A stretch of 64,000 nucleotides of DNA. Source: a virus. Each line of letters opens with the position of its first letter. Within the stretch, counting starts at the first letter, position 1. The position numbers and the translations under genes were made by a program. Shown here one piece after another: positions 1-64,000 of this stretch. The notes under the pieces were generated by a model, which saw nothing but the letters and a program-made list of their open reading frames with translations, had not been told where the DNA came from and made no database searches. The DNA lies in the IMG/VR virus record IMGVR_UViG_3300026549_000035, positions 96,918 through 160,917 of that record; one strand, 5' to 3'.

Positions 1-495
1 TCTTAATTGTTTTATCTTGTTTTTTACATTTTCTATATGTTCTTTTTTAAATATTGCTTTTGAATATGGAATTGGAATATTTTGTAAAGCTTCTTCATTA
101 TAGTTTATTTCATCAACAAGCTTATTATATTCTGCAATTTTTTCTTTCATTATTTCTATAACTCTTGGATCAACATATTCATTATAGCATTTATTTAAAT
201 CAAATTTAGTAATACGATGCATTGTAGATTGTGAAGATACAAACTCAAGAAAACGATAACGCTCTGCTTCTACCCACATTTTATTAGAGCAAGTTAAATC
301 AAAATTAACTCTAATTCCAGTTAAAAACTAGTGATGTGCAGTATTACCAGTTTTAGTGGCATTAACTAATTTGGTTCCACGCTCAATATCTTTTTTTTCT
401 ACTTCACGCATACCAACTTCTGTTCTCATAGGATAACCAGAAGCAATAAGAGATTCTTCTAAATCATAGATTTTTACATTACTAACGATATCCAC
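1..495 (-). CDS. Hypothetical protein, 5' part; the gene's 3' end lies beyond the window start. Likely GTG start after an AGGAG RBS; 1 in-frame TAG.
   Basis: Manual minus-strand translation gives a long protein-like frame (VDIVSNVKIYDLEESLIASGYPMRTEVG...); RBS aggagag 7 nt upstream of the GTG. Confidence 0.35.
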
Positions 496-510
496 ATTAA
501 TCTCTCCTTA

Positions 511-1530
511 TTTTATACTATATCCAAAGTCTTTTGCATGAAAAAATTCCTACCAATAATCTTCTCGCTCATTTAATTTAGAACGTTCACACTCTTCAAC
601 AATTTCAAAAGAAAAATTTTCAACACCAAGAGAATACATAGCAGGATAAAGTTTATTACGTGTCCAGTCTTCTGCGCCAACACCACGTTTACAATGCTAT
701 TTCCAACGCTCGGCTATATTGGCACTTTGCCCTATATAACATTTTCCGCTATCTATATGAGTAATTTTATAAATACCAGTATGAATACCAGTTCCAACTA
801 CTCTACCAATCATATCAGTTAAAGGTTTTTCATAATAGACTTTATAAATTACCTTATTTAAAGGAGTTTTATCTCTTAAATAAGGTAATACTTCACGCAA
901 ACGTTTTATCTCAGCAATATCTTCATCAGTTAATATTAAACGATAAAAATCTTGTTGATTTTCTATCTCTTGGCGTCGTTTAGCCGCTTCAACAGCTACA
1001 TTAACATTTTTTCGTTCTTGCTCTAAAATAGTCTGAACTTGTGCTAATTCTTGTTGTTTAGAATTAATTTCTTTCTAAAATTCTAAAACACACTCTTGAG
1101 CTGTTTCAAGATAAATCTATTTTGTCTATTCTCTATCTTGTTCAAGAGCAATACTAATATTTTCAACCTCTTGGTCAAATGAAATTTGTGCGGCTTGGCG
1201 CGCAGCCTCGTAGAACTTTTCAGCTGCTTGCGCAGACTATTTTTCTAAATCATCGAGGCTGTTTTTAACTTCATCTCTTTTAGCAGAAATTGTATCATAT
1301 TCAGATTGAATATTAGCAACCTATCCCTTTAACTCATCTTCCTTTGTTTTTAAAATCTAATTTTGATAAATTAACTATTTATTGTTTGATTCAATCTGAT
1401 CATTTTCTTGTAAAGTTTTCTAATTCTACTAAATTATATTTTTCATAGTTGGTCTACAGACTAGATATATTATAAGTCCACCTAATCCAAGACCAAAAAT
1501 AAATAATAAAAGTATTAAAAATATTGTCAT
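511..1530 (-). CDS. Membrane-anchored coiled-coil protein with a C-terminal GIY-YIG (T5orf172-like) nuclease domain; about 12 in-frame TAG codons.
   Basis: N-terminal hydrophobic helix (MTIFLILLLFIFGLGLGGLII), a Q/E/K-rich coiled coil, and a C-terminal GIYKITHIDSGKCYIGQS...EDYWQEF motif. The track ORF 697..900 is its GIY-YIG piece. A terminator hairpin precedes the ATG. Confidence 0.55.
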
Positions 1531-1580
1531 AATACAAAAAAAGTGGGATGGAAATTAATCCATCCCACGCATATACTTAA

Positions 1581-1847
1581 TTATTCAGCGTCAGCATCGG
1601 GATCAAATGCCATACCAGCGTCTGTCAAAGAAAGGAACTTAACTGCCTTATGGGTACCATCCTCAAGCTCGATTTCAGCAGGAGTACGAACACCAAGACC
1701 TTTTCTTTGAATAGCAGAAGTAAAGATGCCATCAACAGAGCGCTTCTCAAGACCGAGAGCCTCAGCAACATCAGCAGCGGTAACATCTTGACCGTTAATA
1801 GTCTTTAAATAATTGAGTACTTTCTTAGAATTTTCTTTCATAGCCAT
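1581..1847 (-). CDS. Hypothetical 88-aa protein; noticeably GC-richer than its surroundings.
   Basis: Intact ORF with start and stop; a hairpin plus T-run terminator lies downstream at 1536-1575. Confidence 0.5.
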   Translation of the reverse strand: MAMKENSKKVLNYLKTINGQDVTAADVAEALGLEKRSVDGIFTSAIQRKGLGVRTPAEIELEDGTHKAVKFLSLTDAGMAFDPDADAE

Positions 1848-1939
1848 AATAATTTTTCTCCTTATAAATAATATTTTTTTCTTTTTTGGTAATTATTTTT
1901 TTTTACCTGTAAAAATTATATCAAAAAATTTTTTTTAAG

Positions 1940-2147
1940 TCAAGATTCAAGCTCCTGTTGAATAAGCTCATCTAATAGAAACATATCCTCTGGATCACTG
2001 ATTTTTGAACTTAAATTATAAATTTTTCTCTAAGCTTTAGTTACTTTTTCTTGATTTTCATTAGCTTGAATTACTTTTTCTAAATCAGCTATTCTTTTAG
2101 CTAACTTTCGTAATTCTCGTTTAGTCATTAACATTTAAAATTTTCAT
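1940..2147 (-). CDS. Small hypothetical protein with 2 in-frame TAG.
   Basis: Manual translation MKILNVNDQTRELRKLAKRIADLEKV...; RBS aagga upstream. Confidence 0.3.
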
Positions 2148-2191
2148 CCTTAATTTTTACAATTTCATTATACGAAATTTTTTTTATTTTG

Positions 2192-61986: not shown

Positions 61987-62158
61987 TCTATATCTTCATC
62001 GGGGTCAACAGTAGGATCATCCCAATCATCAAGATTAGAATCAATATAGCTATTAAAATTTTCTGGACTTGCACATATTGTATCTTTAAGTGAAAAAGAA
62101 ACAATATCTAATTCTGGTTTTACATATTTTTTCATAAAAAAACTTCCTTATAATAAAA

Positions 62159-62235
62159 TGGTGGGACATCAAGGGTTCGAACCTTGGGTCATCCGGTTAT
62201 GAGCCGGAGGCTTTAACCAACTAAGCTAATGTCCC
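62159..62235 (-). tRNA. tRNA with anticodon CAU (the fourth CAU tRNA in the array).
   Basis: GGGACAT acceptor; TCCGG-CTCATAA-CCGGA. Confidence 0.6.
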
Positions 62236-62238
62236 ATA

Positions 62239-62316
62239 TGGAGCTTACGGTTGGATTTGAACCAACGATCACGGAGTTGCAGTCCGCTGCCTTAAACCAT
62301 ACTTGGCTACGTAAGC
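62239..62316 (-). tRNA. tRNA-Cys (GCA).
   Basis: GCGGA-CTGCAAC-TCCGT. Confidence 0.65.
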
Positions 62317-62756
62317 ATATATAAAAATTTATGAAGATAAGGATTTGCACCTTATATAATAGTCATACCTATCAATCCCAATTATTGGTTAGAGTGCCGA
62401 AGTTGCTTGTTAATGCAACGTATTCTAACAAGGGTTAGCGATGACTTCTCTCTATTCGACACGATTTGCGTCTACCTATTCCGCCACTTCATAATATTAA
62501 AATAGGAAAATCCAAGTTCCTCCACACCGCTTACACTCTATATGTGGGGCAGGCTCAATAATTACATCAGGATCATTTTCTTCGATTTCATAAATAGCTC
62601 CACAACGAGGACATACTACAATCATTTTTAAAATCCTTTCTTTTTCATTTTCTATATATATTATATAATATTTTTTTATAAAAATCAAAAAGTAAGATTT
62701 TATTGTAATTTACTATAAAAAAGCAGAGTAAAATTTTAATTTACTCTGCCCAAAAT

Positions 62757-63059
62757 TATAGTCCTAATTTAGACATTAGTTCAGCTAGTGTATCTTGTTC
62801 CTCTTGGCTGATTTCCGCTGGCTTAAAAGCAGCTGCTTCTATTGCGGAATTTTCATCATCATCGAAATTTAAAGCCGTGGGAGAAGTTTCTTCTATACCT
62901 CTTAAAACTTTTGGACAAGTTAAAGCAATAGCAATCTGAACTCTTTGACCATTTCCGTCGTCAGCCCAGACATAATGCTTGCGGTCAAACTCACCAATAT
63001 AATCATTGGTAAAAGTGGTTTTTATAATATTAGCAACTTTTTCTTTTGCGATCTAGCCT
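62757..63059 (-). CDS. Hypothetical protein; 1 in-frame TAG.
   Basis: MKGQIAKEKVANIIKTTFTNDYIGEFDRKHYVWADDGNGQRVQIAIA.... Confidence 0.35.
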
Positions 63060-63157
63060 TTCATATATTTTCTCCTTTCTATTTTAAAAAATTAAACCCA
63101 ATCAAATATACAAAGATCTGTATCTTCAGATGTTTTTTCTTTGTTTAAATCTTCTGC

Positions 63158-64000
63158 CTAAAGATTTTTATATATAGCTTCATTCTCTCTACAAGAAGGA
63201 CATAAATAATGCCCTTTAAAAACAGTTATTTGTTCTTTTAAATCAATTGCTCCACAAACTTGACATTCCGCAGTTTCTTTCTCGTAACATTGAGGACATA
63301 TTTCAACACCAGAATAACTTAAATAATGAAGCTCTCTAGTAGAATTTCCACATATATCACAAGTATAATAGTCTTCATTATCTTCAAGGCTATATTTCAT
63401 TGCACACTCTTCACAAACCATAAGGTCTGGATAATTAATTCTATTTTTCCCACATAATGGACAAAAACAAGCTGCTCCAATATGAAAGACTGTTGAATAA
63501 GAAGAACTTTGTCCAGTTGCTATTTGAAAAATACTATCTTCTTCTTTATAAGCATATAATGGTTTATAGCAAGATGATTCTAAAACATCATTATACATAT
63601 GAGTTTGATGACCATTAAGAACTAAATCTTTCAAAGGTTTTAAGGTTCTTCCTACTGGAATACACTTATCAAAAAAGAATTTCTCATTAGTTTTTACATC
63701 AATCATACTTGAAATCATTGTTTGATGAAAATCTGTCCATTTTCCCATCCCAATTTCTGGTAAAATTATGTTTTTCACATATTCTAATCCTACTTCACTT
63801 GTAAAAGGATAAGATCTTCCCGCAAACAACATAGTCTTATCGTCTGAAAAATGAAACCAAGTTCTCCATTTTTTAGAATTCCAAGGAATAGAAGCAGGAA
63901 AATGAGGAAGAGTTGCTTCCCTTTCTGCTCTTAAATAACAAATAACTGTATCATTATCCATTAAATAATTTAAGTTGCCAGATCGATAATCTCCATCAAG
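63158..64000 (-). CDS. Cys-rich hypothetical protein; the frame stays open to the window end, so the N-terminus may lie outside.
   Basis: Multiple CxxC pairs in the C-terminal half; no stop upstream of 63961 within the window. Confidence 0.4.
   Translation of the reverse strand, partial: LDGDYRSGNLNYLMDNDTVICYLRAEREATLPHFPASIPWNSKKWRTWFHFSDDKTMLFAGRSYPFTSEVGLEYVKNIILPEIGMGKWTDFHQTMISSMIDVKTNEKFFFDKCIPVGRTLKPLKDLVLNGHQTHMYNDVLESSCYKPLYAYKEEDSIFQIATGQSSSYSTVFHIGAACFCPLCGKNRINYPDLMVCEECAMKYSLEDNEDYYTCDICGNSTRELHYLSYSGVEICPQCYEKETAECQVCGAIDLKEQITVFKGHYLCPSCRENEAIYKNL

Follow-up and report, generated by a model that had tools for sequence, protein, structure and literature searches.

Very probable reassignment of TAG to glutamine in an uncultured large phage, and its uneven use between homing-endonuclease-like and other genes

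We analysed a stretch of viral DNA of 64 kb and 31% GC (IMG/VR virus record IMGVR_UViG_3300026549_000035, positions 96,918-160,917; the whole stretch is called the window below), whose source is a large, uncultured, AT-rich tailed phage that probably stems from the rumen. This phage very probably uses genetic code 15, in which TAA and TGA terminate translation and TAG is decoded as glutamine by means of a phage-encoded tRNA with the anticodon CUA (tRNA-CUA). An earlier sequence-only reading of the window had proposed that TAG is a sense codon, most likely for Gln, and this is borne out by coding density, by the continuity of reading frames, by alignments to relatives and by the presence of the tRNA-CUA. 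Its further statement that the reassignment applies throughout the genome is too broad: TAG occurs in 36 of 76 genes, is concentrated in 13 genes resembling homing endonucleases and is missing from five large genes. TAG recoding of phages has been known since 2014 and was validated by proteomics in 2022, and will be no surprise to the specialist. The concentration of TAG in homing-endonuclease genes offers a testable lead on the use of recoding.

TAG behaves as a sense codon

Coding density was calculated by a simple greedy, non-overlapping tiling of open reading frames (ORFs) of at least 60 amino acids rather than with Prodigal. Between positions 1 and 34.1 kb, it rises from 0.667 under code 11 to 0.903 when TAG is read as sense, and stands at 0.684 when TGA is; over the whole window, the corresponding values are 0.586, 0.818 and 0.621. 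The comparison of translation tables 11 and 15 that the sequence-only reading had called for has thus come out in its favour, and the gain exceeds the 5-10% over code 11 by which code-15 phages have been recognized (PMC9523058; PMC13037316). With only TAA and TGA as stops, ORFs tile the minus strand (-) almost without gaps from position 1 to about 34 kb, and 42 of 48 genes lie on that strand. Reading TAA as sense also raises the density, though solely because TAA is the commonest triplet in this AT-rich DNA, and only 31 of 54 genes then lie on the minus strand and strand coherence is destroyed. Reassignment of TGA (code 4) brings no density gain and is ruled out for the window. One expectation was wrong, namely that most six-frame ORFs end at TAG: only 25 of the 122 table-11 ORFs of at least 60 amino acids do so, against 66 ending at TAA and 31 at TGA.

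Once RNA genes had been masked and genes chosen by their codon-usage score, the curated set under code 15 comprised 76 genes; 56 of them end in TAA and 19 in TGA, and one is cut by the edge of the window. Ninety-four in-frame TAGs are spread over 36 of them. By construction, gene calling leaves no in-frame TAA or TGA and closes all 75 complete genes with one of these two codons, and it is within this limit that their proposed role as terminators holds; in the two off-frames, TAA and TGA together account for 5-13% of codons. The ATGA overlaps at 3004, 5129 and 21482, which had been cited for the same role, are real, and terminators said to follow TAA find their counterpart in terminator-like hairpins at 1568-1543, 14458-14431 and 17936-17911. 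Beyond the first TAG, a codon-usage model trained on TAG-free genes only still favours the same frame in 28 of 29 genes, with a summed log-odds of +2360 over 5541 codons. The most TAG-rich gene (508-1530, -; 12 TAGs in 340 codons), whose product has a transmembrane and coiled-coil region as well as a Pfam GIY-YIG domain, scores +182 after its first TAG. In alignments to the relatives described below, 72 TAG positions are flanked by aligned sequence on both sides, 36 of them by standard-code relatives, and 1384 residues stand opposite TAGs as against 55 gaps.

Pfam domains likewise run across TAGs in the ligA adenylation domain, RNase H, the PG_binding_1 domain of the endolysin, PhoH and the GIY-YIG genes. 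In the N-terminal part of ligA (3678-4841, -; adenylation and OB domains), the match to DNA_ligase_aden (E 2.9e-48) spans the TAG at 4320-4322 in the adenylation domain, a column at which relatives have E, K, D or Q; a second TAG, at 3687-3689, lies two codons ahead of TAA. The RNase H gene (11920-12360, -) carries its TAG at 11944-11946, within the domain and seven codons from the stop: it is residue 159 of the 166-residue stop-to-stop translation, of which residues 21-162 are aligned to Pfam RNase_H. In the endolysin gene (12765-14402, -; GH25, CHAP and PG_binding_1 by Pfam), the TAG at 12840-12842 falls within PG_binding_1. On the plus strand, a GDSL-esterase/repeat protein (Pfam) and small tail-fibre-like ORFs (34205-39296, +) have one to three in-frame TAGs each, and weak PHROG tail-fibre matches extend across TAGs of the tail-fibre-like ORFs (34.2-39.3 kb). 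Read-through of TAG in the endolysin and the tail fibres had been anticipated and agrees with these matches. Gene calling with the standard code fragments about half of the phage genes, including ligA, gyrB, phoH, RNase H, the endolysin and the tail-fibre-like genes, and public protein sets derived from these contigs are wrong unless translation table 15 is used.

It could be argued that TAG is an ordinary stop codon and that the fragments are pseudogenes, assembly errors or split genes. Indeed, ligA, gyrB, phoH and gyrA are truly interrupted by insertions (see below), such that part of the fragmentation has nothing to do with TAG. Nevertheless, 94 in-frame TAGs contrast with no in-frame TAA or TGA over about 15,000 codons, coding potential persists after the TAGs, reading TGA as sense gives no comparable rise in density, a tRNA-CUA is encoded, and dozens of independent contigs from metagenomes have TAG, CAA or CAG at the same positions. 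We consider an ordinary stop so improbable that it can practically be set aside; pseudogenes and assembly artefacts in particular are effectively refuted by the density, codon-usage, stop-count and alignment evidence.

Glutamine is the best-fitting amino acid opposite TAG

The relatives used for comparison are 139 loci from IMG/VR, 76 found via GyrA and 63 via a DUF2828/DUF7788 protein, on metagenomic viral contigs of 100-240 kb. All their stop-to-stop ORFs (TAA and TGA as the only stops) were translated with TAG shown as X, the window genes were compared with these ORFs by blastp, and the codon opposite each window TAG was tabulated. Among the 1922 cells at 82 positions, Q is the commonest residue at 22%, followed by K at 16% and E at 11%, compared with a background frequency of 2.7% for Q. 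Tabulating the residues opposite TAG, another check that the sequence-only reading had suggested, therefore supports it, and gaps are rare. Real CAA and CAG codons in the same alignments show a similar substitution spectrum (K 14%, E 11% and N 7% opposite Q). With substitution profiles estimated from these same alignments, the maximum-likelihood assignment of TAG is Q, which leads the next candidate, K, by 730 log units in the pooled data and by 39 when each of the 82 positions is weighted equally. When only the 12 standard-code loci are used, in which the subject residues are unambiguous, Q is still best, with a position-weighted lead of 18.5. Four TAG columns are conserved in the sense that one residue makes up at least 80% of at least eight aligned cells, and all four are Gln. 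Judged from these alignments, Gln is by far the best-fitting amino acid for TAG and almost certainly the one encoded.

Several TAGs fall at functional motifs. In PhoH, the TAG at 14685-14687 (-) occupies the Q of the Walker B motif DEAQN, as in the solved structure of a PhoH-like protein (PDB 3b85); all 13 non-TAG cells in relatives are Q, and seven more are TAG. In the ATPase domain of GyrB, the TAG at 11285-11287 (-), in the context YST-TAG-LLVEIFSNAVDE, is matched by 55 Q, 2 TAG and 1 H; gyrB also has an in-frame TAG at 10943-10945. In the GIY-YIG endonuclease gene inserted in gyrB, the TAG at 9832-9834 (-) within CYIG-TAG-S is matched by 31 Q, 4 TAG and 7 other residues, and the paralog at 508-1530 reads YIGQS at the corresponding position. 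In a Cys-rich homing-endonuclease-like gene with ten TAGs (28737-29639, -), which matches PHROG families of HNH, homing and intron-encoded nucleases, the TAG at 28902-28904 (-) lies in the nuclease motif E[YF]DGxQH, where 27 of 32 non-TAG cells of relatives and paralogs are Q and nine further cells are TAG. The TAG at 39649-39651 (-) occupies the same motif in the paralogous gene 39457-40614, with Q in 29 of 34 non-TAG cells plus seven TAG. Near-invariant glutamines had been predicted at three TAGs, and the PhoH and GIY-YIG sites do align to Q, the latter in 31 of 42 relatives. The third, NDIN-TAG-KIYIG (46680-46682), is no conserved Gln, its column being made up of G (19), N (16), D (7) and Q (3).

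The candidate suppressor tRNA

The gene for tRNA-CUA (43969-44043, -) is 75 nt long and encodes a class I tRNA (short variable loop) with a U1·C72 mismatch, G73 and an encoded CCA. It scores 51.6 bits against the Rfam tRNA model and, parsed by eye, has the usual cloverleaf form, its anticodon stem being 5 bp and its variable loop 5 nt long. A promoter-like sequence, TTGATT-17-TG-TATAAT (44072-44100, -), lies about 28 nt upstream and scores 10/12 in a consensus scan with an extended -10, as a pattern match in a region no richer in such sites than shuffled sequence. A hairpin followed by a T-run, likewise a pattern match only, lies after the gene at about 43925-43975.

In E. coli, the identity elements by which glutaminyl-tRNA synthetase (GlnRS) recognizes its tRNA include U35, a 1:72 pair that opens easily, and G73, and amber suppressors are prone to being charged with Gln. 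The tRNA-CUA carries U35, a weak 1:72 pair and G73, under rules that are those of E. coli and may not be those of the host. The canonical tRNA-Gln (UUG) of the phage (49070-49145, -) has an A1·C72 mismatch and G73 as well. When 451 tRNAs of the window and of related loci are compared, G73 together with a weak or mismatched 1:72 pair is found in 22 of 24 distinct tRNA-Gln and in 17 of 25 distinct tRNA-CUA, and position 73 is A in the Lys tRNAs and most Glu tRNAs of this phage family. The tRNA evidence is consistent with Gln, without being decisive by itself.

A likely mechanism is that the tRNA-CUA would be transcribed, perhaps from its own sigma-70-type promoter, that a host enzyme would then charge it with Gln, and that the charged tRNA would out-compete the host release factor 1 (RF1) at UAG. 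GlnRS is the most likely charging enzyme, since Gln identity is favoured by U35 in combination with G73 and a weak 1:72 pair. In this scheme, the charging enzyme, the timing of expression and the way in which RF1 is overcome are the parts that we infer.

A tRNA-CUA of their own is customary, though not essential, for code-15 phages. Suppressor tRNAs are common among the relatives, in which the homologous tRNA arrays hold one or two tRNA-CUA genes. An exact search of IMG/VR with the anticodon arm of the tRNA-CUA gave 0 matches, the pattern being too specific, and the suppressor tRNAs of relatives were located via a neighbouring protein instead. In L028/L075, L084, L097, L106 and L125/L132 (L numbers designate loci), tRNA-CUA genes measure 91-97 nt and have either a long extra arm or an inserted stretch in their variable region. 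Several of these share the acceptor stem and G73 with the family tRNA-Gln, and with 0-15 aligned TAGs each the loci offer too few for an amino-acid inference. Two further loci, L077 and L078, carry two different 75-nt tRNA-CUA genes each. In the window, the spacer between tRNA-Arg and tRNA-CUA (44105-44230, -) stands out by its high GC content from the AT-rich sequence around it; it may be structured and matches nothing in Rfam.

Weighing the assignment

Several points weigh against the assignment of TAG to Gln through the phage tRNA. For this phage, the identity of the residue is drawn solely from comparison; many TAG columns are variable, so that few positions decide the matter by themselves, and the relatives lack phylogenetic independence. 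At the TAG at 28776-28778 (-), in the context RIPYT-TAG-D of the Cys-rich endonuclease gene, paralogs and relatives mostly have Trp (13 of 21), the only TAG column with such a non-Gln majority. Three genes, namely RNase H, an exonuclease (24910-25710) and the first part of ligA, have their last TAG no more than seven codons from TAA or TGA and could conceivably end at TAG. Compared over its whole body with 450 family tRNAs, the tRNA-CUA singles out no isotype, its best identities to non-CUA tRNAs being 0.72 (Gly), 0.71 (Lys), 0.71 (Thr) and 0.69 (Gln), and its 2:71 and 3:70 pairs (C-G, C-G) are unlike those of E. coli tRNA-Gln. Finally, the window ORFs scanned showed no gene for release factor 2 or any other release factor, for GlnRS or any other aminoacyl-tRNA synthetase, or for an anti-RF1 factor.

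Could TAG be a sense codon for another residue, for example Lys, Glu, Trp or pyrrolysine? After Q, the commonest residues opposite TAG are K and E, one column is mostly W, and overall tRNA similarity leaves the isotype undecided, with G73 found in the family tRNAs for Trp, Asn and Asp as well. However, the K/E/N spectrum is the same as that of real Gln codons in these alignments, and the log-likelihood falls short of that for Q by 730 (K) and 1003 (E) when all loci are used and by 2281 (W) for the first 76 loci. In addition, every conserved column is Q and the family Lys tRNAs have A73. As for pyrrolysine, the label 'Pyl' that ARAGORN gives to the tRNA-CUA derives from its anticodon only, its 75 nt form a canonical cloverleaf, none of the scanned window ORFs has a domain like those of pylS or pylBCD, and the alignments disfavour a Lys-like residue. 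We therefore regard a residue other than Gln as highly improbable.

Uneven use of TAG and homing-endonuclease-like genes

With TAG read as Gln, the Gln codons of the code-15 gene set comprise 94 TAG, 368 CAA and 77 CAG, which gives TAG a share of 17%. This share is strongly uneven. The 13 homing-endonuclease-like genes (GIY-YIG, LAGLIDADG, HNH, PD-(D/E)XK and the Cys-rich E[YF]DGxQH type) hold 57 TAGs, about 60% of the total and 39% of their Gln codons, whereas the remaining 63 genes hold 38, or 10% of theirs (odds ratio 5.8, p = 2e-13). At the other extreme, five genes of at least 400 amino acids, namely those for GyrA, a Band 7 protein, an RNA ligase, a protein resembling the major vault protein (MVP) and a DUF2828 protein, are free of TAG over 96 Gln codons, which has a probability of 6e-5 at the rate of the non-endonuclease genes. 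The same contrast is seen in the recoded relatives, with a TAG share of 38% in endonuclease-like genes versus 6% in others, and it holds in 50 of the 51 loci with enough data. Within genes, TAG positions are uniform and show no 5' bias (Kolmogorov-Smirnov p 0.44 and 0.55).

Such uneven use fits TAG being a costly or time-gated codon. A refinement of the reading given above is that TAG has a dual meaning in time, being an RF1-dependent stop early in infection and Gln later, and hence serving as a timer for late, lytic or selfish genes. A model of this kind was proposed by Borges et al. (10.1101/2021.08.26.457843), who also saw a recoded intron endonuclease, and an early fraction devoid of recoded peptides was reported by Peters et al. 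(PMC9523058); the contrast of 39% versus 10%, its recurrence in relatives and the five large TAG-free genes point in the same direction. On the other hand, TAGs are also found in the replication genes ligA, gyrB, RNase H and phoH, ligA lies just downstream of a perfect TTGACA-17-TATAAT site (4890-4862), the TAGs are uniform within genes with no 5' bias, and the unevenness is explained equally well if selfish genes, being poorly expressed, are under weak selection to avoid an inefficient codon. In our view a timer is possible, with the odds somewhat against it.

The enrichment of TAG in endonuclease genes may thus reflect either regulation or the weak selection that selfish genes experience against an inefficient codon. 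A bolder proposal is that selfish endonuclease genes are the main users of the reassigned TAG, and that recoding serves as their expression gate or as a barrier that contains them. If this were true, endonuclease genes would be 'code-locked' to recoded phages and would not be expressed before the suppressor tRNA becomes active. We think this unlikely. It is also a possibility that the traffic of endonuclease genes helps in the spread or upkeep of recoding. The same idea has been raised for one TGA-recoded intron endonuclease family (Borges et al., 10.1101/2021.08.26.457843), and a clade-wide enrichment of TAG across many endonuclease families is not described in the phage-recoding literature cited here.

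Gln codons other than TAG also vary between genes. CAG is preferred over CAA in the Band 7 gene (17944-19413; 12 of 19) and in the MVP-like gene (30743-33214; 23 of 34), while the rest mostly use CAA; these two genes could differ in expression or in origin.

Endonuclease-bearing insertions

Recoding is not the only cause of broken genes in the window: insertions that carry endonuclease genes are a second one, separate from TAG. Each of ligA, gyrA, gyrB and phoH is cut into two ORFs by such an insertion. In ligA (2192-4841, -), a Cys-rich endonuclease-like ORF with four TAGs (3004-3696) separates the N-terminal part from the C-terminal part (2192-3007, -; Zn finger, HhH and BRCT by Pfam), which has two TAGs. 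In gyrA (5129-8389, -), the insertion bears a LAGLIDADG gene (7309-7932), and in gyrB (8379-11398, -) a GIY-YIG gene with five TAGs (9157-9888), lying between the N-terminal part (10121-11398, -; two TAGs; Pfam DNA_gyraseB and HATPase_c_3) and the C-terminal part (8379-9059, -; Toprim and C-terminal domain by Pfam). The phoH gene (14457-17021, -; PIN and PhoH domains by Pfam) consists of two parts, 16164-17021 and 14457-14882, around a LAGLIDADG gene with eight TAGs (14914-15852). The sequence-only reading had joined the ligA, gyrB and phoH fragments across TAG; homology in the same frame over the TAGs bears out this part of the claim, but the fragmentation stems in part from the endonuclease insertions.

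The insertions are polymorphic. The majority of relatives instead have single uninterrupted ORFs, with counts for ligA (47), gyrB (61), phoH (18) and gyrA (71), among them the locus L001, whose gyrA is 99% identical to that of the window, and in these relatives the two halves abut precisely. No group I intron was matched in Rfam at E <= 1 between 2000 and 17500, and the insertions may be intron-like or derive from free-standing endonucleases.

Endonuclease-like genes are also interspersed in the tRNA array of the window (42989-62316, -). They are of the HNH (43147-43860 and 59998-60507, -), GIY-YIG (46080-46736, -) and PD-(D/E)XK (47673-48050 and 54399-54818, -) types.

Relatives and known recoded systems

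The window phage belongs to a lineage absent from GenBank phage records. A megablast search of these records with a 20-kb query gave no nucleotide match to the window, and the best identity in tblastn with GyrA was 38%, leaving it without a named relative. The nearest contigs come from the IMG samples 3300032038, 3300032007 and 3300028888, and the nearest large ones are IMGVR_UViG_3300032007_000018 (200 kb) and 3300032030_000014 (158 kb). Within IMG/VR, the same gene neighbourhood occurs with a code-15 signature at 78 of the 139 loci; 12 loci are classed as standard code and two as code-4-like. The standard-like loci (L019-L023, L026, L027, L029, L031, L032, L036 and L064) gain nothing under code 15, and L018, L034 and L035 gain only when TGA is read as sense, suggesting code 4. 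This suggests that the genetic code differs among fairly close relatives inside one family defined by GyrA. With standard-code, TAG-recoded and possibly TGA-recoded members, the lineage should be useful for studying the origins of code change.

Reassignment of TAG to Gln in phages is already established, and the window phage adds another case. It has been predicted across many clades of gut phages that infect Firmicutes and Bacteroidota, and large clades, some from cattle, mix codes 11, 15 and 4 (10.1101/2021.08.26.457843); our mixed-code relatives mirror these. In the same study, recoding was proposed to delay late and lytic genes, and the recoding of replication genes was found to be variable (10.1101/2021.08.26.457843). 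TAG recoding has further been described in phAss-1 (PMC10607447) and in surveys of jumbo phages that include rumen data (PMC13037316).

A close parallel is found in crAss-like phages, in which Gln at TAG was established by mass spectrometry (Peters et al. 2022, PMC9523058). They share with the window TAG as Gln, a phage tRNA-CUA, the density gain under code 15 and uneven TAG use. However, crAss-like phages infect Bacteroidota, while the window phage is of an unrelated lineage whose GH25/CHAP/PG_binding_1 endolysin and strong Shine-Dalgarno sequences suggest a Gram-positive host. The window also has TAG in replication genes, and read-through has been shown by mass spectrometry only in the crAss-like phages.

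The Agate, Jade and Sapphire clades, which infect Firmicutes (10.1101/2021.08.26.457843), resemble the window phage in their described features only: a size of 100-250 kb, an origin in animal guts including cattle, codes 11, 15 and 4 within a clade, suppressor tRNAs and variable recoding of replication genes. Agate also has a recoded intron homing endonuclease, but this is one TGA-recoded family, whereas the clade of the window uses TAG in many endonuclease families. Similarly, phAss-1 of the proposed Phassvirus (Babkin et al. 2023, PMC10607447) is metagenomic, measures about 136 kb, has TAG in many hallmark ORFs and carries suppressor tRNA genes, but it is a human gut phage with no detectable nucleotide similarity to the window.

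Outside phages, amber suppressors of the supE type in E. coli are tRNA-Gln with a CUA anticodon that insert Gln at UAG in competition with RF1. They have in common with the tRNA-CUA of the window that they are class I, with a CUA anticodon, a weak 1:72 pair and G73. In contrast, supE is a mutant chromosomal allele with partial suppression, under which TAG is still a stop, whereas the window tRNA is encoded by the phage, none of whose genes appears to end in TAG.

Other genes and RNAs of the window

Genes for replication and nucleic acid metabolism in the window are gyrA, gyrB, the NAD-dependent ligA, RNase H, the PIN-PhoH gene and an RNA ligase, next to those for the GH25/CHAP/PG_binding_1 endolysin and the tail-fibre-like ORFs. 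No terminase gene lies within the 64 kb. The host is probably a Gram-positive, rumen-dwelling bacterium; strong ribosome-binding sites of the AAGGAG type and the architecture of the endolysin suggest a Gram-positive host.

Perfect or near-perfect sigma-70 consensus sites (TTGACA-17-TATAAT) occur on the minus strand at 4890-4862, 2195-2167 and 1943-1915. The first, a perfect one, is the site directly upstream of ligA; the second lies immediately downstream of ligA, and the third overlaps the start of a small ORF (1940-2134). Such motifs suggest that the phage may be transcribed by the host RNA polymerase.

A gene cluster with domains typical of RNA repair or ribonucleoproteins, nearly all of it free of TAG, occupies 17944-34024 and 40699-42252 (-). 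Its members include Band 7/flotillin, an AAA_33 kinase, three metallophosphatases, NADAR, the RNA ligase, an RNase T-like exonuclease, an HD protein and the DUF2828/DUF7788 VWA protein, the last of which is annotated as 'RNA-binding protein' in PHROG 850. An 823-residue, TAG-free homologue of the eukaryotic MVP is encoded at 30743-33214 (-). It has the Pfam domains MVP_shoulder and Vault_3 and is collinear with MVP chains across residues 452-768 (phmmer E 2.7e-16). Phage MVPs were reported earlier in a 2023 preprint (10.1101/2023.11.10.566534).

The window has 33 tRNA genes, every one of them on the minus strand. Two further RNAs lie within the tRNA array according to Rfam, a full-length ROOL RNA (48184-48772, -; 332 bits, E 8e-76) and a skipping-rope RNA (52611-52721, -; 43.8 bits).

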